Below are positions 16,014 to 40,798 of a DNA stretch of 64,000 nucleotides, in pieces; position 1 is the first letter of the stretch, and every line of letters starts with the position of its first letter. Under the pieces are notes generated by a model. It was not told where the DNA came from, searched no databases, and saw only the letters and a list, made by a program, of their open reading frames with translations. The position numbers and the translations under genes were made by a program. Location of the stretch: assembly GCA_965227295.1 (NCBI GenBank), contig OZ245742.1, positions 1,280,001 through 1,344,000 on the forward strand, read 5' to 3'. Source of the stretch: Leptonemataceae bacterium (GTDB lineage Bacteria; Spirochaetota; Leptospiria; Leptospirales; Leptonemataceae).

Positions 16014-16024
16014 AGATTTTTTAG

Positions 16025-19956: not shown

Positions 19957-20148
19957 AATAGACCAGAGTCCCCGGGGTACAAGCGTATTTTTTGACCCCT
20001 TGTACCATCACCGCGACATATTTTCTCAAAAAGTGACGGGCGGATGAATTGTACCAGTGCTTTTTTGAATTTTTCTCAAACTCCCGCGCCCCTCGTACCA
20101 CCATGGAAAAACAATTGCCGCAAAGCCCGCCCCGGGATTCCGGAGCAT

Positions 20149-22761: not shown

Positions 22762-22772
22762 CGCGGCAACCG

Positions 22773-23720
22773 TTAATCGATGCGTAAGATCTGATTGCCG
22801 GCACTTACGTAGAGGTCGTCGTCGACGGGGACCAGTCCGGCGGCGTTCGTAATCGTGGTGGAAAAGGGAAAGAACACAAAGCCGCGCCGTCCACCGAGAG
22901 ACATACGATACAGGTTGTTTACGCCGGCCGCATATACTCTTACGCCGTCGGTGGTGAGATGAGTCAACGTATCCTCGCTTACTTCAATGTCCGGGTCCGT
23001 GTCACGGTAGGCCTCGTCCAGGGCGTAGGCCCGCAATCGGCTGCCGCCCTCGTAAATCCAGAACAGGGCGTTGCCGTTCGTCGTCAGGTCCACGCCGTTG
23101 TGGATGCCCGACACCAGCAACTCGGCCGAACCTCCGTCCCGGGGGACGGTCACGACGCGGTCCGCTTCAAGGACAAAGATGCGATCGAGATCCAGCGCGA
23201 CAGCCCGGACGTCGGTGAAACCCGAGGCGAGTTCGATGATGTTGCCCGTAAGCACATCCACCCGGACCAGGGTCTGGTTGGAAAGCAGAGCATACACGTA
23301 TTGACTGCTGCTCGTGATGCTGAGGGGGGTGGCTGCAAACGTGGCGACGGATACGACCTGAGACGTGCGAATGTCCGCGCGACGAAGCCGCAGGTTGTCC
23401 TGGTCGGCGATGTAAAGACCGTTGCAGTCCGTGCTGATGTCACCCGGATGGCCGAAGCTGGCGGCTGTCGCAATGCCGTCCAGGTTGCCCGCCATGCTGC
23501 TGCCGACGAAGACCGACGCCGCCGGTTGCAGCCGAATCGCTTGCATTTCCTGGCCGTTGATTAGATTGCAGGTGATGGAATCGAGGTAGACGGCGTAGCC
23601 GCCCAGAAAGAGCAGAGCGTTGACCTCGTCATCGCTGCTCGCCTGGCTCCGGCAGGAGCCGATGAGGCTCAGGCAAACGAGCAACGTGAGTCGCATAAGG
23701 CCGTTGATTCTGCGGTTCAT
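22773..23720 (-). CDS. Putative lipoprotein, NHL/beta-propeller-like
   Basis: Lipobox LIGSC; G.LDG..TAASF.HPGDI, repeated LTT(N/D)G...Y blades. Confidence 0.6.
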   Translation of the reverse strand: MNRRINGLMRLTLLVCLSLIGSCRSQASSDDEVNALLFLGGYAVYLDSITCNLINGQEMQAIRLQPAASVFVGSSMAGNLDGIATAASFGHPGDISTDCNGLYIADQDNLRLRRADIRTSQVVSVATFAATPLSITSSSQYVYALLSNQTLVRVDVLTGNIIELASGFTDVRAVALDLDRIFVLEADRVVTVPRDGGSAELLVSGIHNGVDLTTNGNALFWIYEGGSRLRAYALDEAYRDTDPDIEVSEDTLTHLTTDGVRVYAAGVNNLYRMSLGGRRGFVFFPFSTTITNAAGLVPVDDDLYVSAGNQILRID

Positions 23721-23745: not shown

Positions 23746-25452
23746 GTGCAATCGGATGGCAATGAAAAAAAACCGGCGCCGGATTCCCGCGTGAATCTGG
23801 CGCACACTGTATTGAGAGATGCGCTCGATGCAAAAGGTTTCGCCGAATTTACCGTTCGGGGCGAAAGCATGTATCCGTTGCTTCGTCCCGGGATGACGAT
23901 CCGCGTTGTTCGCTGTGCGGAGAAAGATCTGCGCGTGGGAGACATCATCATCTTCCGCAGCCGCGACGATCTTCTGGCACATCGAATCGTCGCAAAGCAT
24001 GGCTCCTCCCTCTGGATCGCAAAAGGGGATAATACCTTCATTTCGGACGACCCCGTCGCTTTCGAGGAGATCCTCGGCCGGGTCATCGCCGTCGCCGGGG
24101 AGGAGTACATCTACGGTTCTCGCGACGTGATGCTTGCGCGGCTCTCGCACCGTCAGGGTCGCATCGTTTCCGAACTGCGTTCTCGCAGCGAACGCCGACG
24201 ATCGTCGACCGGCCGGCGCGTGAAACGCGAGAACGTCCTGGCCTGGCCGCTGCGCCTGGCGTTGCGTCCGTATCTGTGGTTGGTGCGTCTCATCGCGGCC
24301 GGACATCCGAACCGCGACGGCGGGCGCCTGCCCATGGACGACACAGTCGACATACATCCGGGCACGCTGCAAATGGTTCGCCGTCGTGCCGCGGTCGCCG
24401 GCCGGCCCGCCACGGATTTGAGCTGGGTCGCCGTGGATCCGTTGATCGGTTTTCTGGGCGATGCGTTGCGAACTTCACCGCCGCGACCGGAACGCCTGGC
24501 GAAGTACATGCAGACCTGGAACGCCGCGGTGCGGGCGCTGCGTTGCCTGGCGGACGCAAACATTCAGACAATCATCTTTAAGGGCCTGGTCTTCGCGGAA
24601 GAACTCTACGACAGCCCGTTGCATCGTCCCATGCGTGATGTGGATTTGCTCGTGCGCCCGGACGACTTCGCGGCGGCGTGTCGCTGTTTGTCGGCCGCGG
24701 GTTTTATGATTCATGACGACTTTCCGGAGCGGCGCCCCCATGCGGTTTCGGACGCGGAAGTTTTCCCGGCGGATGCGTGGGCGCCGGGAGAGCTGACCTT
24801 CGTCGATGAGCGCGGAGTGGAGATCGATCTGCACTGGCATCTGATTCCGGAACACTGGCTACGCCCATGCCGTAACATACTTTTAGATGAAGTCTGGCGA
24901 GACGCTCGCCCCTTTCAATTCGAAGGCGGCAGTGTCTGGACCATGAGTGACGTACATACGGCCGCGTACCTGACGTTGAATCTGAGCCGCAACGCTTATC
25001 GTTCTTTATTCGCGTACCTGGATCTGGATCGATTGTGGCGCCGGCAGGGCCGTGACTTCGCGCAAGAGTTCTTCGATACGTGTCGGCGCTGGCGCATTCG
25101 CATCGCCGCGGATTATGCCCTTCGTTACTTGAAGTATTTGTGCGACACTCCGGTACAGATTTCGCGGCGACTGCGCCTGCGTCCGGGTCTGCCGCGGCCG
25201 GTTCGTCTCTTAAAAGATTCGCGACGCTGGCGCAGTGACGGTTACATGTACTTCGTGCAACTGGCGACACTGGACCGGCTGCGCGACGCCCTGGGCGTCA
25301 TCGTGCGGTTGGTTCTTCCTCCGCGCGGTTGGTTGCGACGACGCTACGGTGAGCGGGCTTCGTTCGTCCATCACTGGAGGCACGTCTTTCGTGCTTTGAC
25401 GGAACGGCGGACGAACTCAGGGAATGCGGACGGAACCGATGGGACTCGTTGA
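23746..25452 (+). CDS. Fusion: S24/S26-family peptidase + nucleotidyltransferase (NTP_transf_5-like)
   Basis: N-terminal VRGESMYPLL.PG...GDIIIF...HRIV...KGDN; C-terminal FKGL...LY..P..RPMRDVDLLV and IDLHW. Confidence 0.82.
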   Translation: MQSDGNEKKPAPDSRVNLAHTVLRDALDAKGFAEFTVRGESMYPLLRPGMTIRVVRCAEKDLRVGDIIIFRSRDDLLAHRIVAKHGSSLWIAKGDNTFISDDPVAFEEILGRVIAVAGEEYIYGSRDVMLARLSHRQGRIVSELRSRSERRRSSTGRRVKRENVLAWPLRLALRPYLWLVRLIAAGHPNRDGGRLPMDDTVDIHPGTLQMVRRRAAVAGRPATDLSWVAVDPLIGFLGDALRTSPPRPERLAKYMQTWNAAVRALRCLADANIQTIIFKGLVFAEELYDSPLHRPMRDVDLLVRPDDFAAACRCLSAAGFMIHDDFPERRPHAVSDAEVFPADAWAPGELTFVDERGVEIDLHWHLIPEHWLRPCRNILLDEVWRDARPFQFEGGSVWTMSDVHTAAYLTLNLSRNAYRSLFAYLDLDRLWRRQGRDFAQEFFDTCRRWRIRIAADYALRYLKYLCDTPVQISRRLRLRPGLPRPVRLLKDSRRWRSDGYMYFVQLATLDRLRDALGVIVRLVLPPRGWLRRRYGERASFVHHWRHVFRALTERRTNSGNADGTDGTR

Positions 25453-25902
25453 ACAGGAGTCGGCCGCGTCCGTGTCTGTCGGGCAGGCTTCGTAGAGTTT
25501 CAGGGTGCCCCCGTGTTCCGCGAGCATGCCGGCGGAAACCGTAATCAGAATGGTGTGTCGATCGCCGGCGGCCACTTCCAGTTCCAGCGGCTGGGCGTAC
25601 TCTTCGTCTCCTCGCGGGTTTTGTAAGAGCAGGGGCGCGGGCCGGTCGTCGATCCAGGCGCGGATTTCTTTCAGTAAAATGATTTCATGAAAGCGCCCCG
25701 GGTTCTCCACTTCTATGCGTCCGACTTCCACGGCCGCCGATCGATCCGGCGGCACGGTCACCGCCTGGCGAAACAAGAATCGGGCGCGCGCCCGTCCGTC
25801 GTCTAATGTTGTACCAAAGAATATTAACGCAACAAAGAATGCCGTGATTCCGGCGCTCCAGAGAAGAGCCATTGTAGTCACGGAAGCACGGATGGTACTC
25901 AT
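25417..25902 (-). CDS. Hypothetical membrane-anchored protein
   Basis: ATG 25902 overlaps methyltransferase TGA (ATGA); N-terminal TM helix. Confidence 0.55.
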   Translation of the reverse strand: MSTIRASVTTMALLWSAGITAFFVALIFFGTTLDDGRARARFLFRQAVTVPPDRSAAVEVGRIEVENPGRFHEIILLKEIRAWIDDRPAPLLLQNPRGDEEYAQPLELEVAAGDRHTILITVSAGMLAEHGGTLKLYEACPTDTDAADSCSTSPIGSVRIP

Positions 25903-26735
25903 GATGCCGCGCCTGTCAGGGCGAAGTGCACCTGCTCGACGGCCGGGGCGAGGGCGCCCTCTTCGACGTCGACAATGTGCAGGCCGGCCGCGGCGAACTC
26001 GGCTTCGACTTCCGCGCGGTTCCGGAAGTAGTGAATGAACTCCACTCGAAAATGATCGCCGGACTGCACGGCCGTGTTGCCGAAGCTCAGGCAAGCGAGC
26101 GCCTTTTTCCACGCCATGAAGCGCCGACCGATCCCCGGGCCGATGTAGGCCGAGAGCACGATCACGCCGGATTCTCGTAACATTCGTTTACACTTTCTTA
26201 AGAGGTCCTCCCGGTGGCGTCGCCCGGGTATGCACGAGTACATGCCCGGAGAAATGATGACAACGTCGTAGAGCGGGGCGTCGGCATCATCCGGAAAGGC
26301 CGCGATGTTTTTGTCGAAAGGAACGACGCCGCGTTCGAAGTGAGCGCGGTCACCGAAACTCTGCGTATTTTGCCGCGCGCTTTCGAGGATGGCCGGGATG
26401 CCCTCGACGCCGGTGACGTGAAAGCCATGGTCGAGGAGCACCAGGGCCTCCCGGCCGCCGCCGCAAAAAAGGTCCAGGGCTTGCGGCGGCGCGGACTTGC
26501 TCCGGCCCCGGGCAATGGGAAAGACCCGGCGTTCGTACATAAGCCGTTCGCCCTCGGAAAGAAAACCGCTCCGATTCATGGCCGGCCCCTGCCAGACCGC
26601 GGCATGGCCGCTGTAGAGTCCGGCGCTGAACCGGGAGAGCCGGTCCGGTGGTAGAATGCAGAGCGTGGTCACGTCGACGGCGTTGCGGACGACGGTGGCG
26701 ATCTTGCGTAGAATGCGTACCAGAAGAATCTTCAT
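25899..26735 (-). CDS. Class I SAM-dependent methyltransferase
   Basis: Motif I LDLFCGGGREA, VTGVE, YDVVI, MLRESGVIVL. Confidence 0.82.
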   Translation of the reverse strand: MKILLVRILRKIATVVRNAVDVTTLCILPPDRLSRFSAGLYSGHAAVWQGPAMNRSGFLSEGERLMYERRVFPIARGRSKSAPPQALDLFCGGGREALVLLDHGFHVTGVEGIPAILESARQNTQSFGDRAHFERGVVPFDKNIAAFPDDADAPLYDVVIISPGMYSCIPGRRHREDLLRKCKRMLRESGVIVLSAYIGPGIGRRFMAWKKALACLSFGNTAVQSGDHFRVEFIHYFRNRAEVEAEFAAAGLHIVDVEEGALAPAVEQVHFALTGAAS

Positions 26736-26759
26736 AGAATTCGATGAGTGCGTTCGTTT

Positions 26760-28967
26760 TCAAAACGGCCGCACGAAACCTTTCTCCCGCAGCCGGAACG
26801 GATCGAGCCGTTCCGCGTTCTTTTTATGATTCGTGACAGCGTCCGCCGACAGGCCGATCTCCGCGCCGATTTGCGCGAGGCGTGCGTGACAGTGCGCTGC
26901 CGTAACTTTCCAGGAACTACAGTTACGAAAAAGTTCCGCCGCCGCGTGTAAATCCTGTTCCGCGGCCGGACTTGCGACGGCAAGGTGGCGGGCCCGGAGC
27001 AAATGGCTTTCGCCGGCCAGGTTTTCCAGTTCGGCGTCCGCAGGATACAACGTGCGCGCCCACCGGAGCCACGGCAACGCCGAATCCACGGCGGCCGCAA
27101 CCGCCGCGGGGTCTCCGGAACTTTCGGGATTCCGGGGTTTGAGTACCCACACGAGCCAGGCGTTCTTATGTCGATACGGCTCCAGTGCCTCCAGTGCCTG
27201 CTCGCGCGCAAAGACCGCGAAGCCATGATACGTGACACCGACGCAGAGGATGAGTGCGGCCACGGCCGGCCAGGTATTTCGGGGCGCAGGCGACGGCATT
27301 GGATCCGCATCCTGTTTCGATGAAGGCAATGCCAGAAGGACGGCTAACGCTACGAGCACCATGGCCGCATAGAACGGCTGAATGAAATGATAGTTCATAA
27401 GACCCTGGAGCAGAAACGAAACGAGGGCCGTGCCCGCGGCGAGGGCCAGTGTGCCTGGCAGGCCCGGGACGAATAGACTGCGCCGGGCCGACTCGATCGC
27501 GTAGGCCGTGAGAAAGAGGATCAGAGCGGCGAAGGGGATGCCTGCATCGAGGCACAGTTGCAGGAGCAGGTTGTGTGCGTGCAGTCCGGCTCCCTGCATA
27601 CGGTAGTCGTGGGCAAGATGATAGAAGCCCGCGCCGCGGAGATCCGGTATCGGCATCGCGGCCAGCACGGAGTAGTGATTCGCGCCCGTGCCGAACAACG
27701 GTACTTCGGCGATTGCATTCAGGGCCAGTGTCCATAAAGCGAATCGCTGGCGTAATGTCGTAAACAAAAAGAAGTCCGGGTCCGTGCTGCGATCTTTCAT
27801 GAACCACAACCAGACCACAACGCCGGCCATCAGCGCGAGAACGCCCGCACCCACGAAAACGATGCGCCGATGGGAACGGGCGGAATCCGGCTTAGATTCT
27901 TCTGAGTGTAATCTTACAAATGCGAGGGCGAACAGAAAAACCGCGATCGCCATTCCGCTGAGGTACGCGAAGCGCGCGGCCGTTGTTATGAGTAAAAAGC
28001 CCAGAACCGGGACGATCCCCAGGGCGACGCCCATGCCGATCCGGTGCGCAAACTTTTCGGTTTGCGGGCCGTGCTTCGAAAAGAGTGATCGCAAGATTGC
28101 CGGCACGGCAACGAGCAGGGGCAGCAGGAAAACCAGCCAGCCGCCGGCATCGTTGGAGTTGACGCCGCCCAGGCTGTCCTTCTTGGCAAAGAAAAGATCC
28201 ATTGTTGGAACGCTGCGAAAGAGATGCTGTGCGCCGACTGCGAGCCAGCCCAGGTTCAGCAAGCATACACCGATCCACACCAGCGCCGTGCCTGCCGCAT
28301 CTTCCCGGGCGCGGGCGTACGTAAATAAGAAGAGAAAGACGAGCACAATGCTCAGACCGACGGCCGGTATGCTCTGGTAGTAGTTGGGCGCTACCAGGCC
28401 GGCGATGACAAACCACAGCCAGGCCGAGCCCCCGGCAATCAAGAAGACCGGATGCCGCCGCCGCAAACTTTGTAGAACCTTTTGAAGATCGTCGGCGTAC
28501 TCTACGCCGAGGTACGCCGCGGCACAGACCAGCGGCAGGATGCCGCCGGGGTTCCAAACGTAGACCCACAAGAACGGAAACGATAAGAACCAGAGCAACG
28601 TCGCCAGAGCGACCATCCGCGGCGGAACCCCGCGCCAGATCGCGATTAACATTAGAAAAAAGTAAGCGTAGAACCAGAACCGGTGATAGAACCGCAGGCC
28701 CGTTATGCCGGTATCGATGTAAATCGACGCGGCCCGGACCGCCGTGACAAAAACCAACAGTGCGCCAAGACATGCGATAGCGGCGAATGCGTCTCGTCTG
28801 TTTTGATGAGATTGTTCGCCACCGAAGTAGCGTGCACCTGCCAGAGAGACGAGCAAGATCCCCAGGGTAGGCCACAGGAGTTCTCGTACAAAAGTGTACT
28901 GAACGCCCGCGGACAGGCCGCTGCAGAGCAACACGGCCAGAATCAATATCCGAAGGGCCCACATCAT
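26760..28967 (-). CDS. O-antigen ligase (Wzy_C)-like polytopic membrane protein
   Basis: Many TM helices; R..LW..AL..I...PLFGTG and HAHNLLLQL..DAG motifs; helical C-terminal tail. Confidence 0.78.
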   Translation of the reverse strand: MMWALRILILAVLLCSGLSAGVQYTFVRELLWPTLGILLVSLAGARYFGGEQSHQNRRDAFAAIACLGALLVFVTAVRAASIYIDTGITGLRFYHRFWFYAYFFLMLIAIWRGVPPRMVALATLLWFLSFPFLWVYVWNPGGILPLVCAAAYLGVEYADDLQKVLQSLRRRHPVFLIAGGSAWLWFVIAGLVAPNYYQSIPAVGLSIVLVFLFLFTYARAREDAAGTALVWIGVCLLNLGWLAVGAQHLFRSVPTMDLFFAKKDSLGGVNSNDAGGWLVFLLPLLVAVPAILRSLFSKHGPQTEKFAHRIGMGVALGIVPVLGFLLITTAARFAYLSGMAIAVFLFALAFVRLHSEESKPDSARSHRRIVFVGAGVLALMAGVVVWLWFMKDRSTDPDFFLFTTLRQRFALWTLALNAIAEVPLFGTGANHYSVLAAMPIPDLRGAGFYHLAHDYRMQGAGLHAHNLLLQLCLDAGIPFAALILFLTAYAIESARRSLFVPGLPGTLALAAGTALVSFLLQGLMNYHFIQPFYAAMVLVALAVLLALPSSKQDADPMPSPAPRNTWPAVAALILCVGVTYHGFAVFAREQALEALEPYRHKNAWLVWVLKPRNPESSGDPAAVAAAVDSALPWLRWARTLYPADAELENLAGESHLLRARHLAVASPAAEQDLHAAAELFRNCSSWKVTAAHCHARLAQIGAEIGLSADAVTNHKKNAERLDPFRLREKGFVRPF

Positions 28968-29031
28968 AAAAAAAACATAGTGATTTAATCAAACGGTGTG
29001 CGTAAATATGATTTATAGTTGACGTTCACTC

Positions 29032-29391
29032 ATGGCCGGTGTCACTTTCGCACTCATGACTGAAACACAGAATCGCCCTCCGGAAAGTCAGGGCATCGCC
29101 ATTACTGAGGAGACTCGATTTCAAGCGCACGAAGATCTTTCGTGGCGTGAAATCGAAGGACAAATGGTTTGCATGAACCTGAAGTCCGGCGAGTACTTTA
29201 CGTTCAACGGAGTCGGCCGGGAAATCTGGCAGGCTGTTGCGGACGAGCGCGGTAATACGCGGGACATCGTCGCGAAGATTGTAAGTGAGTATGCGGTCGA
29301 AGAAAGTGTTGCGCAAAAGGATAGTAAAGAATTCTTAAGAAACTTGCTGGAAGCCGGTTTGATTCGGCCTGTGGATAGTCAACAAAATTGA
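29032..29391 (+). CDS. PqqD family protein / RiPP recognition element (RRE)
   Basis: WREIEGQMV..NLKSGEYFTFNGVGREIW...IV.EYAVEE..A.KD..EFL..L.EAGLI, classic PqqD pattern; alternative start ATG 29056. Confidence 0.92.
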   Translation: MAGVTFALMTETQNRPPESQGIAITEETRFQAHEDLSWREIEGQMVCMNLKSGEYFTFNGVGREIWQAVADERGNTRDIVAKIVSEYAVEESVAQKDSKEFLRNLLEAGLIRPVDSQQN

Positions 29392-29432
29392 TGAATCGTT
29401 CATCGACGACAGTTTAACTTTCGAGGGTAACT

Positions 29433-29585
29433 ATGAAAAACGAAAAGAAAAAGTATGAGTCGCCGTCACTGGAAAGCCGGAATGGCGGTAAAGACTACGC
29501 CGCTCCGACGTTCGAGCGCCACAATCCGCTCAACGAAGTGTCGGCAACCTACTACTATACGTACTACTACTATTACTACTACTGA
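29433..29585 (+). CDS. Putative RiPP precursor peptide with poly-Tyr core (50 aa)
   Basis: Translated by hand: MKNEKKKYESPSLESRNGGKDYAAPTFERHNPLNEVSATYYYTYYYYYYY*; GAGGG RBS at 29423-29427; lies between PqqD and kinase; YxxPxL motif; below ORF-track length cutoff. Confidence 0.85.
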   Translation: MKNEKKKYESPSLESRNGGKDYAAPTFERHNPLNEVSATYYYTYYYYYYY

Positions 29586-29594
29586 GAGAAAGCG

Positions 29595-30680
29595 GTGATC
29601 GGGTTACCGGGGCTTCCCATCGAAGTAGCCGGCCCGCCTTCTCCGGTGCGGGATGCAGTCGAAGCGGCTTTCGGCTTCTGCGCATTTCGAAATAGTAGCG
29701 ATACAAATCACATACGGCTGGAGGTTCGTTTTCTCGATAGCGAGTCCGAATCTCTGGCGGCCCGGGTTCCGGGATTCCTGAGCGCCCGCGTGGCGCTTCT
29801 GGAGCAGGAGCCTTCGCCCGTGTCCTCCGGTCTGGCTTACGTCAGTGAAGGGGGCAGCCGGCAGGGTTCCGGAACCGTCCTTGCAGATCCGCATTCCATA
29901 TGCGCGGCCTGGAGCGACTCCGCAGAGTCGCTGTCCTTATACGTCCGCAAGCGACGGCCAGAACCGGGCCTTTTGCCGTCCGTGCAAGCCCTGCTGATCC
30001 CCCTGCTGCGCGACCTTCTCCTTCGAAGAGATGCCTGTCTCCTTCATGCAGGCTCGGTCCGCACGCGGAACGATGAGGGATTGCTGGTCCTCGGAGATAA
30101 TGGAGCTGGAAAGACTACGGCCGTTCTGGCGCTGGCCCGGGCGGGAGGAGCCTTGCTTGCCGACGATCTGAACGTTTTGCGCAGGGCCGAGAGCGATGCT
30201 CGCCCATCGTTTGAAATCTGCGCGGTCCCGGAAGCGATCAATCTGACCGAGGACGAGAACACGGCGCGCTTTTTTCCGGAGCTGGCCGGTAGTCTGGGGC
30301 GAGCCCGGCCGGAGAACGATCGGCCGAAGGTAGCGGTTGCGCCCGATGAAGTCCTGCAACGACTCGGGGCGACGTCACGAACGGATCGTTGCTTCGCGAA
30401 CGGAGTTTTGATTCTGGATATCACGCCGGAGACTCCGTCCGCGTCGGAACGATTCGAAAGACTGCCGGCAGCACAGGTGTTGCCGTTGCTCCTGCGGGCC
30501 AACGTCTTCGCCGGTGGACAATCACCGGGAGCGGCCTTCGCAAATCTCGCGGAGTTTGTGGAAACCGTTCCGGGATACCGTGTGCGCACGGGGCCCGACC
30601 CGGCTGAAATGGCCCGGGAGATCTTGAACTACTTTGGGCATACACACGTAGCCGGGAGCATTCCCGGAGGGAGAGCATAA
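29595..30680 (+). CDS. HPr kinase-related (HprK-like) P-loop kinase
   Basis: LLHAGSV...LVLGDNGAGKTT...LLADD motif set. Confidence 0.8.
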   Translation: MIGLPGLPIEVAGPPSPVRDAVEAAFGFCAFRNSSDTNHIRLEVRFLDSESESLAARVPGFLSARVALLEQEPSPVSSGLAYVSEGGSRQGSGTVLADPHSICAAWSDSAESLSLYVRKRRPEPGLLPSVQALLIPLLRDLLLRRDACLLHAGSVRTRNDEGLLVLGDNGAGKTTAVLALARAGGALLADDLNVLRRAESDARPSFEICAVPEAINLTEDENTARFFPELAGSLGRARPENDRPKVAVAPDEVLQRLGATSRTDRCFANGVLILDITPETPSASERFERLPAAQVLPLLLRANVFAGGQSPGAAFANLAEFVETVPGYRVRTGPDPAEMAREILNYFGHTHVAGSIPGGRA

Positions 30681-32144
30681 ATGAACGCAAGCGCGGAGAA
30701 CACAGCACAGTCCTGGCCGCAAATGGAAGCCCTGCAGCGTCTCATGCGAGTCAGATCGCTGTTGCAAGACGGGCTGTCTTCGCTACCGGCCCTGATCGAC
30801 ATCCTGGCCGGCGACGATCCCACCGCGGCGGCCGAGGCGCACCAGGGTTTGATGGGCATGCTCCCGCTGGCATCCCTCTATGAACGGCGGCCCGAGGATT
30901 TTGTCGTCGCGGATGCGGACGAAATTCGCGCACCGATCCCGGATTGGCTGAAGGCGTCGTGTGATGGATGGGGGACCACGGAAGACTTCGCCTCTTTATG
31001 CGTGGAGCGTCTTGCGGAATTCCGCACCGGAGCACCGGAGCGTGCTCGCGTATTGCTGGAGCGCCTGGTAAACTTCTGGGGTATTCGGCGCCGGCTGGCC
31101 GAACTGCTCGAGGCGCGCGGTTTGAGCGATCTGCGCCGGACGTACGAAGAACTCATCGTCGAGACGGATGACATTCATTTTCCCGAGCAGATCTGCCTTT
31201 CGCCGACCCAGGCCTGTCAGCTCAAATGTTCGTTTTGTTACTCCGCGGATCTTCCTAATGTACACAAAGATGATATTAGCGACTCGAAGACACTTGAGCT
31301 GCTCGACTGGATGCATTCTAAGAACATTAAGCGTCTGAGTTTCGCCGGCGGCGAGCCCACATTGTTCCGCTACTTTCCGGCGCTCATTCGCAAAGCCGCC
31401 GAATACAAAATGGAAATCTTTCTTACGACGAACGGCCTCATGGCGCCGGCCGTCGTAGACGCGCTCATCGAAGTTCGACCGTTGTGCATCACCATGCATC
31501 TTACCGAAGAGGTTCTGGACGCACCGAAGCTCCTGGCACTCTTCGAACGCAACGCTCGGTCTTTCCTTGACCAGGGCATCTATACGATCATCCGGGCGAA
31601 CTTCATGGAGCCGGAGCAGGACCTGGAGCGCTACTTTCACACGGCGGAGAAACTGGGCATCAAAGAGATTCGTTGCGCCGTGCCCGTTCCCTCCGAACAA
31701 AGCGGTCACGATTACGTGCGCGAAGAGGACATGGACGCCATGGGGCGTTATCTCGGGGACTTCGTCGCCGGCGGGGCCCGGCGCGGTATCAAAACGGTAC
31801 TCAGTAAACCCTTTCCGGTCTGCAAACTTCCGGAGCACGCGGCGAAGGCCTTCCTGGCCAACGGCTCTCTCGGCGTGAATTGTCCGGTCCATCTTACGGA
31901 CTACTCGCACAACATCATGCTGTATCCGGACGGGAGTTTTTCGCCCTGCCTCGCTTTGAATATGAAGAGCGGCACGACCATCTACGATTATGACGGTGTC
32001 CGGGAGGCGGCCCAGGAGTACCGGTCGCGCATTGAGGACATGACCGAACAACCTATGTTTCCCGATCATTGTCCGAAGTGCCCGCTGTGGCAGGGCGCGC
32101 GCTGCGTGGGAGGATGTCTCGGCTATCGCGTCGCCGATTCCTGA
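30681..32144 (+). CDS. Radical SAM/SPASM-domain peptide maturase
   Basis: CQLKCSFC (CxxxCxxC), FAGGEPTL, TTNG; C-terminal NC...DGSFSPC...CPKC.....RCVGGC SPASM-type cysteines. Confidence 0.9.
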   Translation: MNASAENTAQSWPQMEALQRLMRVRSLLQDGLSSLPALIDILAGDDPTAAAEAHQGLMGMLPLASLYERRPEDFVVADADEIRAPIPDWLKASCDGWGTTEDFASLCVERLAEFRTGAPERARVLLERLVNFWGIRRRLAELLEARGLSDLRRTYEELIVETDDIHFPEQICLSPTQACQLKCSFCYSADLPNVHKDDISDSKTLELLDWMHSKNIKRLSFAGGEPTLFRYFPALIRKAAEYKMEIFLTTNGLMAPAVVDALIEVRPLCITMHLTEEVLDAPKLLALFERNARSFLDQGIYTIIRANFMEPEQDLERYFHTAEKLGIKEIRCAVPVPSEQSGHDYVREEDMDAMGRYLGDFVAGGARRGIKTVLSKPFPVCKLPEHAAKAFLANGSLGVNCPVHLTDYSHNIMLYPDGSFSPCLALNMKSGTTIYDYDGVREAAQEYRSRIEDMTEQPMFPDHCPKCPLWQGARCVGGCLGYRVADS

Positions 32145-32151
32145 TATCAGC

Positions 32152-33903
32152 ATGGCATCTTCCGATCCCCGGACAGGCGCCCGGATCGACCCGGCGGCGC
32201 GACGCGGTTTTGCGGCCTTTCTTGCGGCGTACCTGCGTCCGTTTCGTAAGCTTGCGCTCATCGTAACTTTCACATCGGTGCCGTTGTTCGGGCTGGCTTT
32301 TGTGATTCCGGTCTCCTTTAAGAACGCGACGGATTTTTTCCGACAGGCGGACGCGCTGTACTCCGTGGCCTTCTGGATGGCCGTGGGGTTGGGCGCGCTC
32401 GTGCTTAAGGCAATCTTCGACGTTATTAACGCCTACGGCCTTACCGTTCTGCACGCGAGCCTGGCCCGGGACATCCGCGCCGATCTCTACGCGCGTTTAC
32501 AGGCGGCCTCGTTCGACGTACACATTCGCAGTCGCAGCGGGGAGGTGGCGAACCTGTTGAGCAACGACGTGCAGCACGCCGCCATGGGTGCGTTACAAAT
32601 CTACTTCACGGCGTTTTATTATCCGCTGTTGATCGCGGTGCTTTCGGCTGTGATGTTGTACTTCAGCCCGCAGTTGTTTTTGCTGTCGCTGCTTTCGTTT
32701 CCTATCATCAGCCTGGCTGTTTCGTTCACCGCGCGGCGAGCGCATCATGCCGAGCGGCAGTTTCTCGATCGTCACGCGCGGGTGATGGGCATGTTGATCG
32801 AATCCCTCGTGAACGTGAAGCAGATCAAGGCCCTGGGTATCGAAGATCGCGGCCGGGCGAACCTCCGGGCCGTCGACGAAGAACTCCTGGGCTATCGCAA
32901 ACGCGCGCAGTTCATGGAAAGCCTCGCCGGGCCCATCACCGAAGTAACGAACGGTGTCATGCTCACGCTCATGGTCCTCGTGGCGTACTATCTTGTTGCA
33001 AACAATCAGGCCGACTACGGCGAAATCATCGGTTGCCTGGTGGCCGCGGTGCAACTGCGCGCACCGGTGCGCGCTTTCGCCGTGCAATGGATGGACATGC
33101 AAAAATCCCGCGCGGCCGTGCGACGCATTGAATGGATCGTGGGAGTACCGGCCGAAGGCGGGCAAAGCGACGCAGCGGAGTCGGAGCCCATGCAGGTAAA
33201 CTCGGTACAATTCGAGAACGTCTCGTTCTCGTACGACGGGAAACACGAAATTCTGCGCGGCCTCGATTTTACATTACGCCGCGGCGAACGTGTGGCCGTG
33301 CGCGGTCCGAGCGGCAGCGGCAAGACGACGTTCGTGGATCTGCTGGTGGGATTCTATCCACCGGCCGCGGGACGCATCCTCGTAAACAATCAGAATCTAT
33401 CGGCGTTGCGGCCGGATCACTGGCGGCGCAACATCGGCATTGTAACCCAGGAGCCCTTGTTGTTCGAAGGCAGCATCGAGGAAAACGTACGCATCGCCGA
33501 TCCCGACGCGGAGTCGGAACGCATCGAACGCGCCATGCACCTGGCCGGCATGTCGGCTATGCTTGCGGCCTTGCCGGAGGGCGGCGCGACCCAGGTCGGC
33601 GAGCGCGGCAAACGACTCTCCGGAGGTGAACGCAAACGTGTAGCCCTGGCGCGTGCCCTGGTGCGGCCGATCTCGCTGCTCGTTCTCGATGAGGCTACCA
33701 GCGAACTCGACGCCGACATCGAAGAGAGCATTCTGGAATCCATCGACCAACTCGCCGCCGATCTTCTGATCGTACACGTTTCACATCGCGACGCAATCCT
33801 CCGGCATTGTGATCGCGTGCTGGACTTCAAGCCGGGGGCGCCGGTTTGCGAAGTCCCATTGTCGGAAATACAGCCGCGCCCGCGCCGGGAGGTGCTCACG
33901 TGA
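32152..33903 (+). CDS. ABC exporter (fused TMD-NBD), no C39 peptidase domain
   Basis: TM domain then GPSGSGKTT, LSGGERKR, LVLDEATS, VSHR. Confidence 0.92.
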   Translation: MASSDPRTGARIDPAARRGFAAFLAAYLRPFRKLALIVTFTSVPLFGLAFVIPVSFKNATDFFRQADALYSVAFWMAVGLGALVLKAIFDVINAYGLTVLHASLARDIRADLYARLQAASFDVHIRSRSGEVANLLSNDVQHAAMGALQIYFTAFYYPLLIAVLSAVMLYFSPQLFLLSLLSFPIISLAVSFTARRAHHAERQFLDRHARVMGMLIESLVNVKQIKALGIEDRGRANLRAVDEELLGYRKRAQFMESLAGPITEVTNGVMLTLMVLVAYYLVANNQADYGEIIGCLVAAVQLRAPVRAFAVQWMDMQKSRAAVRRIEWIVGVPAEGGQSDAAESEPMQVNSVQFENVSFSYDGKHEILRGLDFTLRRGERVAVRGPSGSGKTTFVDLLVGFYPPAAGRILVNNQNLSALRPDHWRRNIGIVTQEPLLFEGSIEENVRIADPDAESERIERAMHLAGMSAMLAALPEGGATQVGERGKRLSGGERKRVALARALVRPISLLVLDEATSELDADIEESILESIDQLAADLLIVHVSHRDAILRHCDRVLDFKPGAPVCEVPLSEIQPRPRREVLT

Positions 33904-36047
33904 ATACCGTAGTAGAACCCTTAGATCGTACTTATCTTGAGTTAAGCGCCGAACCGCAGGCCTGGCCGCGTTCCCGGGAGGACGGCCGCACGCGGTTGTT
34001 GTTGCTTGCGCTCAACGTGCCGGGTTACTATTCTCTGCCCGTGCGTTTGCTGGCCCTGCAAACCGAGAACGACGCCGAACTGCGTGCGCGCTACGACGTG
34101 CGTTACTTCGAGGCCTTCCTCGACAATTCCATCGAAGATCACCTCGCCCTCCTGGAGGCCTGGCAGCCGGATCTGCTTGCCTGTTCGGTGAACATCTGGA
34201 ATCGCGACGCGTTGTTGGATCTGTGCGGTCGGTATCGTGTATCGAATCCGAATGTTCGTGTGATCGGCGGCGGGCAGGAGGTCTCGAACTCGTGTTACAA
34301 TTTCCTCGAAAGCCATGTGGAGTTCGACTACATCGTGGACGGCGAGGGTGAAATTCCCTTCCGCGAATTTTTGAACGAGTGGGAGCCGGGAGAACTCCGG
34401 CTGCGGAATCCCGCGGCGGTCTCGGGCCTGCACTACCGAAACGGAAGTGAGGTCGCCTTTACGTGTCCCGGTCGGACCATCGACGACCTGGATGAGATCG
34501 TTTCGACGAACCTGGCGAGTCTGGCCCCGGTGGGTGACGACAAACTGAAGATGGGTGTACTCTTAGAAGGAACCCGGGCCTGTCCGTTTCGCTGCGCGTT
34601 CTGTTTCGAGGGCGACAAACGAACGAAAACGCGCTTTTCCAGCACGGAACGCTTAACAGAAGAAGCGATGCACTTAATGGATCTGGGCGTAAAAAAGTTC
34701 CACATGCTGGATCCCATCATTTGCGCCAGCCGTCCGGAGCGGCTGGAGGGAATCGCCCGTCTTTTTGATCGCATCCAGAGCCGCGACCCGGAGGCCTTCA
34801 TATTCGTGGAAGCCTACGCCGATCTCATTACGCCGGAGGTGGCGGACTGTTTGCGAGTGTGCTCGGTCCTGGACCTGGGCTTGCAATCCGTCAATCCGCT
34901 GACCACGAAATCCATCCGCCGGCCGTTCAAGCGTGACCGGTGGCTGAACGGCGTCGAACTCTTGCGCGAACGCGGGATTCCGTTCAACGTGTACCTCATC
35001 TCCGGTTTGCCGCACGAAACCTTCGATACGTTCCTCGACGGAATTCAGTTCGTGCTGCACGAGAATCCCACGCGCATTTTTTTCAATGAGCTGTGTCTCT
35101 TGAACGGAACCGAACTGCGAATGCGCGCCGATGAATTCGGCTACGACTACGATCCCGCGCCCCCGTACTTTGTTTTCGGTAACACCTGGATGCCGCGCCC
35201 GGTGTTGCGCATGGCGCAGACGCTTTCTAAAATCGTCGAGCGCAATCACAACTACTCCGGCCCCGTTCTTTTTCCGTATCTGCCCTGGGTTTCCGAGGCG
35301 CCGCGTACCGAAACGCGCGAAGTCCTCGTGGATGCGGAACGAGCGCTGCATGACGGTGCTTATTTTCAGGAATGCGAAAACGACATTCGCGCCGGCGGCA
35401 CCGATGTGCACATCGATTGCGGTCTTGCTTTCGATTCTGCGCGTTTCGACGACTTACTGAACCTGTGCGGTCGTCTGCAATTCGCCGGAGCCGTACGCAT
35501 GAACCTGCGGGCCGCTCCGAATCTACTTACGGACATCGAAAAACTGACGGCGCTGATGAATCGTCTCGTGCTGCACTTTCGCATTCTCTACGACGCTTCC
35601 GGGCACGAAGCCGCGGACCTGCGTGCGGCCGTGGACGCTCTGGATCGCGAGTATCGACTCATGCGCGGGACGCACGCGCGACCGAACGTCGAAATTATTC
35701 TGATGCGTCCGCCGGTGGAGCGTTTGCCGGAGTTGATCCGAGATTGCGCGCGGCGGGTGTATTTGATTTCCATTTACGATCCGGACCAGGACGGCGAGAC
35801 CGGCGGCCTGGATGCAAATACGGCGCGGCAACTTTTTGAAGATGCCATGCAACGACAGGCCTGGCTGCGTCTGCCGCGCAAACACATGCGAGAAGTTCTG
35901 GTGGCGCTCGGACGCGAACTCGACGGCGAGCATGGTCTGGAAGATCGAGCCGATGCGATTACGGAAAAGCTCGCCGTTCTGGGCTTTGCCGGGAATCCGG
36001 TGGAGCAACGTTCGAATGTATCCGGAGCACCCGTTGCAAAGATTTAG
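33900..36047 (+). CDS. B12-binding domain radical SAM enzyme
   Basis: SVNIWN, IGGGQEVS, DGEGE, RACPFRCAFC, GLQS, GLPHET; GTG 33900 overlaps ABC stop (GTGA) with GGAGG RBS. Confidence 0.88.
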   Translation: MNTVVEPLDRTYLELSAEPQAWPRSREDGRTRLLLLALNVPGYYSLPVRLLALQTENDAELRARYDVRYFEAFLDNSIEDHLALLEAWQPDLLACSVNIWNRDALLDLCGRYRVSNPNVRVIGGGQEVSNSCYNFLESHVEFDYIVDGEGEIPFREFLNEWEPGELRLRNPAAVSGLHYRNGSEVAFTCPGRTIDDLDEIVSTNLASLAPVGDDKLKMGVLLEGTRACPFRCAFCFEGDKRTKTRFSSTERLTEEAMHLMDLGVKKFHMLDPIICASRPERLEGIARLFDRIQSRDPEAFIFVEAYADLITPEVADCLRVCSVLDLGLQSVNPLTTKSIRRPFKRDRWLNGVELLRERGIPFNVYLISGLPHETFDTFLDGIQFVLHENPTRIFFNELCLLNGTELRMRADEFGYDYDPAPPYFVFGNTWMPRPVLRMAQTLSKIVERNHNYSGPVLFPYLPWVSEAPRTETREVLVDAERALHDGAYFQECENDIRAGGTDVHIDCGLAFDSARFDDLLNLCGRLQFAGAVRMNLRAAPNLLTDIEKLTALMNRLVLHFRILYDASGHEAADLRAAVDALDREYRLMRGTHARPNVEIILMRPPVERLPELIRDCARRVYLISIYDPDQDGETGGLDANTARQLFEDAMQRQAWLRLPRKHMREVLVALGRELDGEHGLEDRADAITEKLAVLGFAGNPVEQRSNVSGAPVAKI

Positions 36048-36059
36048 AAGGTACTGTTC

Positions 36060-37550
36060 ATGAAAGCTACGTTTCTCGGCCATCAGGGGTGGATGCTGGA
36101 ATCCTCCGACGCGCGCTTGTTGATCGATCCGATCATCACTCCGTACTATCGCAACTCCGCGTATACGAAGATGTGGATGTATCCGCCGCGGGAGATCGAT
36201 CTCGCCGCGATGGGTTCGGTGGACGCGATCTATCTTTCGCATGAACACGAGGATCACTTTCACATCGAGTCGCTGCACCTCTTCAGTCGCGACACGAAGT
36301 TGTACGTGAGCGGTAACATTTCCGGTGCGGCCGTGCGCATTCTCGAAGAGATGGGCTTTCTCGTGCGCCGGCTCTACGCCCTGGAGCAGGTGGAGATCGG
36401 CGAGCACATGACTATGACCGTTTACCCGCCGCCGGCATCGCCCACGGAGCACTGGGTCCTCCAGCCGTTCGTTCTGGAAGATGAGGACTATCGCCGTTCG
36501 TTCTTCAATCCCGTGGACTGCCAGATCTCGGATCAGTTCATCGCCATGCTCGACAAAGAGCGCGTCGCTGAACTCGGACTGGTTTGTGTCGCGAACAATA
36601 CGCAGAACATTCCCGCGCTGGTGCATCCGAATCAATATCTTCCGGGGCGGCGCCGCACGGCCATGAACCTGCGCCCCGCCAACGTCCTGCACAGTCACCT
36701 GGAACTCGGCAACCTTCCGTTCATGCGAGAGATCGCCATCGTCGGTTGCGGATTTATTTCCGAAGACAATCCCTTCGGTCTTTATCTGAATCAGTCCCAG
36801 GCCGAACTCGGCGCGGTAATGGAAAAGTACAGCGTGGGCGCCGTCCGTATTTTCGGACCGCAGCCGGGAGAAGCGGTGGACCTTCGCGGCGACGGCGCAA
36901 CGCGCATTCCGGCACCGCAGGACGGTTTTGTGCGACCGTCGACGGAAGGCGAAGCAGTCCTGGCCTGGGCCGAACAAACCAACTACGTTCCTGATCCTTT
37001 CACGTACGAGTACGATCCGGTCTCGACGAAACTCCTGCACGCGGAAGAACAGGAGCGTCTCGGCGCCGCGCTGGATGCTTTCGCCATACGCATGGCCGGC
37101 CATCGTTTTCAAATCGAGATGACTCAGTCCAACCTGGACGATCACGGCAATCCGGTCGGGGCGGGGCGTCTGTTGTTGATCTTGATGTACGAAGATGGGA
37201 ACGGTGAACGGCGCAAGCTCTACTATGAGTATCGCCCTGCTGATACACGCTTCTACGCGCTGGAGAAACAGGGCATTACGGAATTCGATCTCGCCCATCG
37301 TTACCCCTTCGGTTACGAATGCTGGGCGAAGGATCTGCTCGGATTGCTCGAAGGCGATGTTACCGTGTATGAGATCATCAACTTCAGGAACCGCTTCTGG
37401 CATCCGCAGCGACACATGGTGGAACGCGCGCACTTCCCGCTCGTGTTAAACGATTTGTTTGCGCCGGAGTGCATACCGGAGCTGACATATCAGATCTATC
37501 GCCGTGCGTACGACCGGGCGCGCGCGTCATCGGAAGCGCGTCCGGTTTAA
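36060..37550 (+). CDS. Metallo-beta-lactamase-fold enzyme
   Basis: TFLGHQG...LLIDP, SHEHEDHFH (HxHxDH); last gene of the rSAM operon. Confidence 0.82.
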   Translation: MKATFLGHQGWMLESSDARLLIDPIITPYYRNSAYTKMWMYPPREIDLAAMGSVDAIYLSHEHEDHFHIESLHLFSRDTKLYVSGNISGAAVRILEEMGFLVRRLYALEQVEIGEHMTMTVYPPPASPTEHWVLQPFVLEDEDYRRSFFNPVDCQISDQFIAMLDKERVAELGLVCVANNTQNIPALVHPNQYLPGRRRTAMNLRPANVLHSHLELGNLPFMREIAIVGCGFISEDNPFGLYLNQSQAELGAVMEKYSVGAVRIFGPQPGEAVDLRGDGATRIPAPQDGFVRPSTEGEAVLAWAEQTNYVPDPFTYEYDPVSTKLLHAEEQERLGAALDAFAIRMAGHRFQIEMTQSNLDDHGNPVGAGRLLLILMYEDGNGERRKLYYEYRPADTRFYALEKQGITEFDLAHRYPFGYECWAKDLLGLLEGDVTVYEIINFRNRFWHPQRHMVERAHFPLVLNDLFAPECIPELTYQIYRRAYDRARASSEARPV

Positions 37551-38149
37551 TCATCGGACTCCGTTTTCGTGGGCCGGCCTTCGATGCGCGCAAGAATTCC
37601 CTGGCCTTGCTGAATGACTGCATCGATGCGGGTGCGCCGGTATCCGCGAATCGCGGCCTGGTGTAAATAACGTTCCGCAAGATCGCGTCGGCCGGCCAGT
37701 TCCGCCAACACCGCCAGGTTGTAAAACGGCAACGGGTAGAGCGGATCGATGGCGAGCGCCGCTTCGAAGTCGGAGCGCGCTTCGTCCAGGCGACCCAATT
37801 GCAGCCGCGCCGTTCCCAGATTATACAACGCCATCGCTTCCACGTCCGGCGTGTAGATACTGAACGCCAGCCAGAGATACTTTTTCAAGTGCGGCTTCTC
37901 GCGAATCATGTCGAGAAATCGTCGCGAATGCTCCAGCGATTCTTCGAATTGTTCCAGATCGTATGACCTCCGCCCGCGAAACAAATCGCGAAAGAGCATG
38001 CCCTGCACCCGCCCGGGAATCAGTACGATCAGTCCGAGAGTTATGACGACGTAGATCGAAGGGTACAGCAGATAGATTCCCACCACACAGCCGAGACCTG
38101 CGGCGAGCAACGCGACGTAAGCGATCTTATAGCGCAAAGTACGATTCAT
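37547..38149 (-). CDS. Membrane-anchored tetratricopeptide repeat protein
   Basis: Two N-terminal TMs; ALYNLG...LG.LDEA..DFEAALAIDP.Y..PFYNLA. Confidence 0.75.
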   Translation of the reverse strand: MNRTLRYKIAYVALLAAGLGCVVGIYLLYPSIYVVITLGLIVLIPGRVQGMLFRDLFRGRRSYDLEQFEESLEHSRRFLDMIREKPHLKKYLWLAFSIYTPDVEAMALYNLGTARLQLGRLDEARSDFEAALAIDPLYPLPFYNLAVLAELAGRRDLAERYLHQAAIRGYRRTRIDAVIQQGQGILARIEGRPTKTESDD

Positions 38150-40690: not shown

Positions 40691-40712
40691 GATGCTTTCC
40701 TCTCTGTCTGTA

Positions 40713-40739
40713 CAATCGGTCGGTCCGCAAAAAACATGA
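40713..40739 (-). promoter_or_regulatory. Putative sigma-28 promoter of flgN
   Basis: Minus strand TCAT-N15-ACCGATTG; spacer begins GTTTTTT as in the flgK candidate. Confidence 0.5.
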
Positions 40740-40798
40740 GAAAAAACCGCTCGAAATATAGTTGACCGCCGTCGCGGAAACGCGCGTCTAAAAGCGTA

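Follow-up and report, generated by a model that had tools for sequence, protein, structure and literature searches.

A candidate radical-SAM RiPP gene cluster with an oligo-tyrosine precursor peptide in a Leptospirales-like spirochaete

The DNA examined was a stretch of 64,000 nucleotides from contig OZ245742.1 of a Leptonemataceae bacterium (positions 1,280,001 to 1,344,000, forward strand), and the whole of this stretch is referred to below as the window. Positions 23746-37550 of the window hold a group of genes which we regard as a likely biosynthetic cluster for a ribosomally synthesised and post-translationally modified peptide (RiPP), with a short open reading frame (ORF) ending in a run of tyrosines as the gene for the precursor. 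Gene calls were based on an ORF listing together with Pfam and NCBIfam scans, and these located the ORFs and domains where a preliminary description of the locus had placed them. The features are listed here in order of position.

23746-25452, plus strand: peptidase-NTP_transf_5 fusion protein of 568 aa, with a Peptidase_S24/S26-like region at residues 34-114 and NTP_transf_5 at residues 256-465
25417-25902, minus strand: hypothetical protein, probably of about 161 aa from an ATG at 25902, with a hydrophobic N-terminus
25899-26735, minus strand: class I S-adenosylmethionine-dependent methyltransferase of 278 aa (Pfam Methyltransf_25/12/11)
26760-28967, minus strand: polytopic membrane protein of 735 aa, Wzy_C (O-antigen ligase/polymerase-like; Pfam Wzy_C, 1.9e-11)
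29032-29391, plus strand: PqqD-family RiPP recognition element (RRE; Pfam PqqD, 1.5e-16)
29433-29585, plus strand: precursor peptide ORF of 50 aa, MKNEKKKYESPSLESRNGGKDYAAPTFERHNPLNEVSATYYYTYYYYYYY, ending YYYTYYYYYYY
29595-30680, plus strand: HprK-like P-loop kinase of 361 aa, with an intact Walker A (GDNGAGKTT) and an LLADD motif
30681-32144, plus strand: radical S-adenosylmethionine (rSAM) peptide maturase of 487 aa, with CxxxCxxC and SPASM-type C-terminal cysteines
32152-33903, plus strand: half-size ATP-binding cassette (ABC) exporter of 583 aa, with transmembrane and nucleotide-binding domains (Pfam ABC_membrane and ABC_tran)
33846-36047, plus strand: cobalamin-dependent (class B) rSAM enzyme, B12-rSAM, of 733 aa from a TTG (Pfam B12-binding and Radical_SAM)
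36060-37550, plus strand: metallo-beta-lactamase (MBL)-fold metalloprotein of 496 aa (Pfam Lactamase_B_3, 2.5e-8)
37540-37559, plus strand: terminator-like hairpin at the operon end, a weak call from a consensus scan whose count for the region was not above shuffled expectation

The plus-strand genes from PqqD onwards are closely packed. A gap of 41 nt separates PqqD from the precursor ORF and is followed by gaps of 9, 0 and 7 nt, an overlap and a gap of 12 nt, which bears out the earlier statement that from the precursor onward the genes either overlap or lie no more than 12 nt apart. A GAGGG Shine-Dalgarno sequence precedes the ATG of the precursor ORF by 7 nt, and the B12-rSAM gene has an alternative start, a GTG at 33900, that overlaps the ABC stop codon by 4 nt. 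The minus-strand trio encoding the Wzy_C protein, the methyltransferase and the hypothetical protein diverges from PqqD and converges on the plus-strand fusion gene; within it the first in-frame ATG of the hypothetical protein overlaps the methyltransferase stop codon. The 161-aa hypothetical protein gave no Pfam or NCBIfam match, every NCBIfam match of the methyltransferase was far under its cut-off, and Pfam found no C39 peptidase domain in the ABC exporter. Promoter and terminator scans of the window gave counts no higher than shuffled expectation, and the Rfam scan (at gathering thresholds) and the tRNA scan of the window were empty.

A scan of reference genomes gave 74 pattern matches, of which seven were confirmed by tblastn. 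Four of the seven loci cover residues 15-485 of the window rSAM enzyme at 35-37% identity. These are termed L001 to L004; L001 and L004 are from Nitrospirota metagenome-assembled genomes (MAGs) and L002 and L003 from Desulfobacterales MAGs. The remaining three loci match the rSAM core alone and were used as negative controls. The loci were compared by tblastn of 18 window proteins and by Pfam scans of 57 of the 61 ORFs picked, the four left out being from L003, a contig of 4.2 kb that runs from the precursor to the inside of the ABC gene. The HprK-like kinase and the ABC exporter were found by tblastn in all four full-length loci, and PqqD, the B12-rSAM and NTP_transf_5 in all three with long enough contigs (L001, L002 and L004), the NTP_transf_5 genes there lying inside the cluster. 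Gene order in the loci is as in the window, with start-stop overlaps in L002 and L004. Counting the window itself, PqqD, precursor, rSAM and ABC exporter are present in five of five loci wherever the contig reaches. The preliminary description had named a lack of co-occurrence in other genomes as the result that would count against it, and it is not refuted by the recurrence of the kinase, the exporter and a Tyr-run ORF in four of four loci and of PqqD, NTP_transf_5 and B12-rSAM in three of three. Judged by gene content, a precursor, an RRE and modifying enzymes form a conserved unit, as is generally required of a RiPP cluster.

The precursor itself is part of this conservation. In the window a leader motif, K-x-Y-x-x-P-x-F-x-x-H, is followed by the C-terminal core YYYTYYYYYYY, and K20, Y22, P25, F27, H30 and the Tyr run are invariant across the four precursors that were aligned (window, L001, L002 and L004). 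A short ORF ending in a Tyr run is found in every full-length related locus (4/4), and in the loci carrying PqqD it comes directly after the PqqD gene. The precursors of the related loci are as follows.

L001 precursor: ...SVSQWYYYYYYYWY
L002 precursor: MKKEYEAPMFVKHDPLESVAAVTYYYYYY
L003 precursor: ...KKEYEAPIFIKHDPLESVAAVTYYYYYY
L004 precursor: MKNYEKPIFMKHKAIESAATVYYYYYYY

A profile search with the precursors gave three additional small proteins from protein collections, with cores YYYYFW, YYYYVYYYS and YYYYTYYYYYYY. For the precursor the Pfam and NCBIfam scans gave no match, and the cores consist of 6-12 almost purely aromatic residues. In six-frame translation each of the five sequences with a true rSAM relative contains exactly one Tyr run of at least four residues, always joined to Y..P.F..H, and no such run is present in the three control loci with rSAM core-only matches (46 kb). 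Because the motif-linked Tyr run recurs across the loci and is absent from the controls, the poly-Tyr ORF is a conserved gene and not a (TAC)n microsatellite. The Tyr-rich precursor first picked out from the window alone is a 50-aa ORF whose ending in a Tyr run is conserved in five of five loci.

The rSAM enzyme adjoining the kinase carries its CxxxCxxC motif at C179/C183/C186, invariant in eight of eight sequences, and in its C-terminal domain C381, C401, C423, C464, C467, C475 and C479 are also invariant. The 'SPASM' label is used because of these seven C-terminal cysteines and the fold neighbours of the enzyme; the spacing of the cysteines departs from that of the textbook SPASM motif. An AlphaFold2 (AF2) model made from an 8-row alignment had a mean predicted local distance difference test score (pLDDT) of 83.5 and a predicted template modelling score of 0.85. 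In this model the N-terminal domain, about residues 1-166, is all-helical from residue 8 to 166, and therefore the N-terminus is not a winged-helix RRE. The solved structures nearest in a fold search were SuiB (E 7.2e-12), SkfB, BlsE, DesII, ChlB, CteB, anSME and TigE, and SuiB also ranked first (2.9e-14) when the sequence profile was compared with solved structures. The PqqE structure 6c8v was matched at 4.7e-5 over the core only, and the mycofact_rSAM model at 2.4e-5 with 23.7 bits against a cut-off of 265. The presence of the peptide maturases SuiB, SkfB, ChlB and CteB among the nearest structures is in line with the earlier view of it as an enzyme acting on a peptide.

By the searches made the window rSAM is a rare enzyme. 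A word-index search of 5.8 billion proteins gave ten with E<=0.001 among 7999 candidates scored, these being the query and nine relatives at 34-41% identity. An exhaustive profile search of 1.84 billion 50%-identity representatives gave 30,862 matches at E<=0.001, as expected for the rSAM core; among the best 150 of these, 20 scored at least 350 bits, the next scored 278 bits and from there on the N-terminal domain was lost. Pfam scans of 15 distant relatives showed two HprK-like-rSAM fusions, one B12-rSAM-rSAM fusion and two Peptidase_MA_2-rSAM fusions (the proteins noted for fusions or HEAT repeats are P0207, P0233, P0197, P0262, P0278 and P0155). These natural fusions are independent evidence, from domain architecture, that the kinase, B12-rSAM and rSAM activities work together. 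N-terminal HEAT repeats occur in one distant relative, in keeping with the all-helical N-terminal domain of the window enzyme. Of 14 more distant relatives scanned against NCBIfam, none reached a cut-off. A reading of the locus as a defence system was also considered and rejected: PADLOC models applied to eight cluster proteins gave solely generic rSAM-core matches, such as those of viperin models over residues 172-254, and one methyltransferase match.

The PqqD protein is 33-34% identical to those whose genes immediately precede the precursor ORF in L001, L002 and L004. Its best NCBIfam models are those of lasso chaperones, both below their cut-offs (lasso_PqqD_Bac, 50.1 bits against 80; lasso_PqqD_Strm, 41.6 against 70). 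Structure prediction of the PqqD-precursor complex gave a score of 0.52, the best of three controls scoring 0.00, with contact agreement between runs of at least 73% and a partner pLDDT of at least 53. Of 157 solved complexes 116 pass the mark that was passed here, as do 2 of 215 mismatched pairs; with a score of 0.60 or less it was passed by only 18 of the 157, and by both of those mismatches. These counts hold roughly here, where 4-row alignments were used, and likeness to RRE-leader complexes already solved may explain the pass. The prediction thus lends weak support to binding of the precursor by PqqD.

No enzyme of the cluster reaches a curated NCBIfam cut-off. A profile of the six-member kinase family reaches HprK crystal structures with an E value of 7.7e-7, and G170, G172, K173, T174, T175, D190 and D191, which belong to the P-loop and the ADD motif, are invariant in six of six sequences. 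The kinase keeps the HprK-type P-loop and catalytic ADD motif, and phosphorylation of a peptide is predicted. The fusion protein at 23746-25452 matches Pfam NTP_transf_5 at 3.1e-35 and Peptidase_S24 at 8.6e-5; its peptidase domain could be aligned to human SEC11A (E 0.011) with the Ser, His and GDN boxes kept, and the same joining of peptidase and NTP_transf_5 domains is seen again in Atlas clusters with 50-99 members. It is a candidate for both the leader peptidase and the transferase that would add a glycosyl or nucleotidyl unit to a phospho-group. The ABC exporter is 39-43% identical to the product of the ABC gene directly after the rSAM gene in L001-L004.

The B12-rSAM has both a B12-binding domain (PF02310, 8.1e-10) and an rSAM core (PF04055, 1.3e-18), on which its assignment to class B is founded, and is 37-38% identical to the corresponding proteins of L001, L002 and L004. 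Among solved structures it matches CysS (3.1e-19) and TokK (2.7e-17). The KedN5-family NCBIfam model was matched at 2.1e-35 with 122 bits against a cut-off of 700, so that the enzyme falls outside that family. Its nearest matches are two iterative methylases, CysS and TokK, and the KedN5 model. Residues 97-457 also match the PADLOC candidate-defence model PDC-M51A (3.4e-30), which we read as generic class-B rSAM similarity. In the MBL protein an intact HEHEDH motif occupies residues 61-66, and the domain assignment is confined to the N-terminal third; its look-alikes in the Atlas are uncharacterised MBL-fold families of 457-499 aa, and a single-sequence AF2 model had a mean pLDDT of 33.1 and was unusable.

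Around the constant genes the loci differ from one another. A small rSAM paralogue of 326-366 aa is encoded at L002:17404-18384, L004:17461-18453 and L001:5222-6322 (minus strand), the copies being 52-55% identical to one another. In L002 and L004 it follows directly after the B12-rSAM gene, the slot occupied in the window by the MBL gene, and the MBL protein may be a non-orthologous replacement for it. The ABC and NTP_transf_5 genes of L002 and L004 have between them one for a Kdo/WaaP-like kinase (L002:13233-14054, L004:13299-14162); both loci also encode an HprK-NTP_transf_5 fusion protein (L002:18391-20523; L004:4545-6701, minus strand), and their clusters therefore hold up to three kinase-like and up to two NTP_transf_5 domains. 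When the window was searched by tblastn with the lasso cyclase, B2, small-rSAM and Kdo-kinase homologues of the loci, nothing was found apart from the expected paralogous rSAM match. In the reverse direction, neither hypothetical protein of the window nor the flanking LtaS-like, TPR and HAD genes had a counterpart in the loci, one generic TPR match excepted.

The peptidase is another point of difference. A lasso-B2-like cysteine protease is encoded directly upstream of PqqD at L001:8672-9241 and L004:8899-9378, both on the plus strand. The two proteins are 35% identical; on the lasso_biosyn_B2 model, where the cut-off is 33 bits, the one from L004 reaches 31.3. It is inferred from these assignments that the leader peptidase differs by lineage, being B2-like in two relatives and Sec11-like in the window. 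In L001 and L004, the two loci with the B2-like protease, S or T stands two positions ahead of the aromatic run, in agreement with the lasso rule for that pre-core position. In the window, L002 and L003, where no B2 is seen, T stands directly ahead of the run with V-S-A or V-A-A before it, and this resembles a signal-peptidase A-x-A site, though a comparison of two loci with three involves tiny numbers.

The reading we prefer, and consider likely, is that the locus is a RiPP biosynthetic gene cluster with the oligo-tyrosine tail as its core, which we read as a new family within the radical-SAM-modified RiPPs. In such a pathway PqqD would bind the lasso-like YxxPxF leader and present the peptide to the enzymes. 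Enzymes such as SuiB, PqqE and the cyclophane-forming maturases cross-link aromatic residues, and the SPASM-type rSAM would similarly abstract hydrogen and link residues of the Tyr run to one another through C-C or C-O bonds. The B12-rSAM could C-methylate Tyr or couple the rings of Tyr(i) and Tyr(i+2) as PbsB does; PbsB, the B12-rSAM of a biphenomycin-like pathway, forms a C-epsilon-to-C-epsilon biaryl bond in a Y-T-Y motif (PMC12257519). The HprK-like kinase is expected to O-phosphorylate a hydroxyl, either of Tyr or of Thr/Ser at the leader-core junction or the C-terminus. The NTP_transf_5 domain might then add a sugar or nucleotide to the phosphate, in the manner of pseudomycoidin, where PsmK phosphorylates and PsmN adds hexoses (PMC9266682). 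The presence of HPr kinases in some lasso clusters is also noted in a 2014 genome-mining paper. Decoration with phosphate or sugar would also bring into solution a peptide that is otherwise very insoluble. The leader would be removed by the Sec11-like peptidase domain in the window and by the B2-like protease instead in L001 and L004, and the ABC transporter would export the product. The MBL protein, the methyltransferase and the Wzy_C protein may add lineage-specific tailoring. The leader motif and the preference of PqqD for lasso-type chaperone models suggest that the recognition module was inherited from lasso pathways. The pathway would thus unite recognition parts of lasso type (leader motif, PqqD, in some loci B2, and kinase and NTP_transf_5 tailoring) with a core chemistry that is not of the lasso type.

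A bolder version of this proposal can be entertained tentatively, and we think it rather doubtful. It holds that the two rSAM enzymes turn the homo-oligotyrosine, with no need of oxygen, into a ladder-like polyphenolic peptide bearing multiple cross-links, that O-phosphorylation and glycosylation by the lasso-derived kinase and NTP_transf_5 follow, and that the product belongs to an unrecognised RiPP class. If true, the pathway would be an anaerobic counterpart to those making biaryl peptides with cytochrome P450s, and a lasso-type module of leader, RRE and B2 protease would have been captured by another core chemistry. More generally, should both rSAM enzymes act on the Tyr run, a new scaffold and new anoxic catalysts for aromatic C-C/C-O coupling or methylation would be at hand. 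The pathway is also small, with seven to eight genes in about 8.5 kb and one outlying gene, and is amenable to heterologous expression.

Among known systems, SuiB, the streptide enzyme, is the nearest solved structure by both profile and fold and shares with the window rSAM the CxxxCxxC motif, a Cys-rich auxiliary-cluster domain and an aromatic substrate, whereas identity is about 18% and the N-terminal domain is all-helical where SuiB has a winged helix-turn-helix RRE. The homopolymeric Tyr core also departs from the K-x-x-x-W or Omega-x-x motifs of SuiB, PqqE, the triceptide enzymes and DarE. Cittilins and biarylitides derive from very short Tyr-rich ribosomal cores which are cross-linked through biaryl or aryl-ether bonds. 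There, however, cytochrome P450s and oxygen are used; here no P450 is present, rSAM enzymes take their place, and relatives of the window cluster are found in Desulfobacterales and Nitrospirota MAGs. The SynChlorMet cassette comprises a PqqD-like protein together with rSAM/SPASM proteins, so gene content is broadly similar. On the ScmD model, whose cut-off is 100 bits, the window PqqD reaches 20.9, the kinase has no ScmC match at E<=0.01, and the best 25 of the 50 NCBIfam families matched by the window rSAM include neither ScmE nor ScmF. The biphenomycin-type pathway likewise has a cobalamin rSAM and a RiPP precursor whose aromatic residues lie close together, PbsB coupling Tyr-x-Tyr through C-C, but the MNIO, arginase, hydroxylase and FHAFRF motif of that pathway have no equivalent here (PMC12257519). 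PbsB and the window B12-rSAM are likened by description, the best matches of the latter being the methylases CysS and TokK and the KedN5 family. Neither a homopolymeric Tyr core nor this enzyme combination was found in the full-text literature searched, whose coverage leaves out most subscription-journal papers, and an earlier description, for example in a radical-SAM RiPP atlas, cannot be excluded. No paper naming the SynChlorMet cassette was found in the same literature.

Several observations weigh against the RiPP reading or limit its reach. Although the genes first labelled by eye are in place, three of their domain labels fall short when taken singly: Pfam SPASM was unmatched by the window rSAM at E<=0.01, the HprK match of the window kinase is 18.8 bits against a cut-off of 33.3, and the peptidase domain is just below threshold in both S24 (22.7 against 23.3 bits) and the archaeal-type signal peptidase I model sigpep_I_arch (47.5 against 51.85 bits; 1.7e-12). 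The rSAM had 50 NCBIfam matches, and in the best 25 of these no rSAM family, and no peptide-maturase model, came near its cut-off. For the B12-rSAM a methylase-like and a PbsB-like role are both left standing. The division of the precursors into leader and core is a putative boundary. As only one of the eight cores ends in Ser, a kinase target like the C-terminal Ser of the paeninodin type is not obvious. The L003 precursor (L003:1-140) has no in-frame ATG, GTG or TTG following the upstream stop; an ATG one frame off lies just ahead of a G5A6 homopolymer, and an assembly error in the MAG is plausible, the alternative being a real frameshift. No peptidase of any type was seen in L002. The sample is small, with five loci and eight distinct precursors, and all of the chemistry proposed (cross-linking, methylation, phosphorylation and hydroxylation) is read from the genes. 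Of the cluster as first drawn, the block running from PqqD through precursor, kinase, rSAM and ABC exporter to B12-rSAM, with NTP_transf_5, stands, whereas tblastn found no counterpart of the MBL protein, the methyltransferase or the Wzy_C protein in L001-L004. The MBL gene is operonic in the window, but membership of the cluster is, on this comparison, unsupported for it and for the methyltransferase, Wzy_C and hypothetical genes.

The most serious rival, which we consider improbable, is that the poly-Tyr peptide is a sacrificial scaffold from which modified Tyr is excised as a cofactor, pigment or signal, in the way that pyrroloquinoline quinone (PQQ) derives from PqqA and mycofactocin from MftA; a homopolymeric core would then yield several product units per peptide. 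A PqqD partner and an rSAM/SPASM enzyme acting at C-terminal Tyr follow the logic of both pathways, the core suits repeated identical chemistry, and the window adds an MBL-fold metalloprotein, the fold of PqqB. The MBL gene, however, is absent from the four related loci. The weak matches to PqqE and MftC given above would favour a scaffold, but their scores are far under the cut-offs, and the Pfam and NCBIfam scans of the window found no homologues of PqqB/C/F or MftD/E/F, nor the domains of these accessory proteins. A dedicated ABC exporter is kept in five of five loci; exporters of this kind usually go with peptides that leave the cell and are not typical of the PQQ and mycofactocin clusters. 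The W, F, V, T and S variants of the core argue that the whole tail matters. Given these points a RiPP whose core is the Tyr tail itself is preferred.

Less credible still is a cell-envelope glycoconjugate locus in which a glycan or lipid is the substrate of the kinase, NTP_transf_5, Wzy_C and LtaS-like proteins while the peptide serves at most as a primer or anchor. Genes that would suit such a locus are Wzy_C and a nearby LtaS/sulfatase-like protein in the window, a GT4 gene in L001, GT2, PMT_2-TPR and acyltransferase_3 genes in L004, and the Kdo/WaaP-like kinases inside the L002 and L004 clusters. However, these genes vary by locus, whereas the RRE, the precursor, the two rSAM enzymes and the exporter are constant, and the fold neighbours of the rSAM are peptide maturases.

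A derived lasso cluster, with the cyclase and B2 protease elsewhere in the genome and the tailoring genes here, deserves even less credence. It would account for the PqqD proteins scoring best on lasso-type chaperone models, for the B2-like proteases of L001 and L004 and for an Asn-synthase homologue adjoining PqqD in L004. The YxxPxF motif of the leader resembles the lasso YxxPxL motif. Resemblance to paeninodin/pseudomycoidin-type lasso peptides extends to the discrete PqqD-type RRE, the HprK-like kinase, the NTP_transf_5 protein and the half-size ABC exporter, and kinase and NTP_transf_5 tailoring is documented in lasso clusters (PMC9266682). The Y-x-x-P of the leader and the B2-like protease kept in L001 and L004 are further likenesses. 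Against this, none of the eight cores has, after the leader, the Asp or Glu required at position 7-9 as acceptor for the macrolactam, which contradicts a lasso product. The Asn-synthase homologue of L004, the only one in the loci, passes the AsnB (glutamine-hydrolysing) cut-off (400.6 against 267.1 bits) and fails that of the lasso cyclase (232.3 against 525). Neither Asn_synthase nor Transglut_core3 was found among the 59 window ORFs scanned with Pfam, nor in L002, which agrees with the early remark that no lasso cyclase is visible in the window and leaves the window without the B2 protease as well. Two rSAM enzymes are present here, and these go unmentioned for the paeninodin/pseudomycoidin clusters in the part of the source available (PMC9266682).

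Least credible of all is a regulatory leader peptide on which ribosomes stall at Tyr codons when Tyr-tRNA is scarce: single-residue runs in short ORFs at the head of an operon are a hallmark of attenuation leaders (his and phe operons), and in L001 the stretch that separates the ORF from the rSAM gene contains a strong hairpin followed by a T-tail (9889-9924), but in the window the stop codon is 9 nt from the kinase gene with no terminator-like site after the ORF, no plus-strand site of this kind follows the ORF in L002 or L004, the leader is conserved at the amino-acid level across phyla, which an attenuator would not need, the ORF always follows a PqqD-type peptide-binding protein, and the operon contains no tyrosine biosynthesis.

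The host is best read as a Leptospirales-like spirochaete. The nearest named relatives of the valyl-tRNA synthetase encoded in the window are from Leptospiraceae/Leptospirales MAGs at 59-67% identity, and higher matches (73-75%) carry no finer label; the spirochaete assignment made at the outset is consistent with this. With the window Leptospirales-like, the other members found in Nitrospirota and Desulfobacterales MAGs, and genes of transposase and conjugation type on the flanks of L001, the distribution of the cluster is patchy; horizontal spread is plausible. The flanks of L001 (2222-4792 and 18155-19245) hold a homologue of a type IV secretion system coupling protein with a single-stranded DNA-binding protein on one side and helix-turn-helix and rve transposase genes on the other, which hints at a mobile context.

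The peptidase-NTP_transf_5 gene is immediately preceded, at 20044-23720 of the window, by genes for a 905-aa LtaS/sulfatase-family membrane protein and for a putative lipoprotein of 315 aa that weakly matches the beta-propeller-like DUF6923, neither of which has a counterpart in the related loci. Flagellar genes encoding FliW, an FlgL-like flagellin-family protein and FlgK are found further upstream (14169-17971), and downstream of the cluster a 611-aa protein within 40172-42007 has a C-terminal FlgN domain. At 6781-10786 a DabB-like protein (Proton_antipo_M) is paired with DabA (PF10070, E 1e-232), and this pair is probably an uptake system for inorganic carbon.

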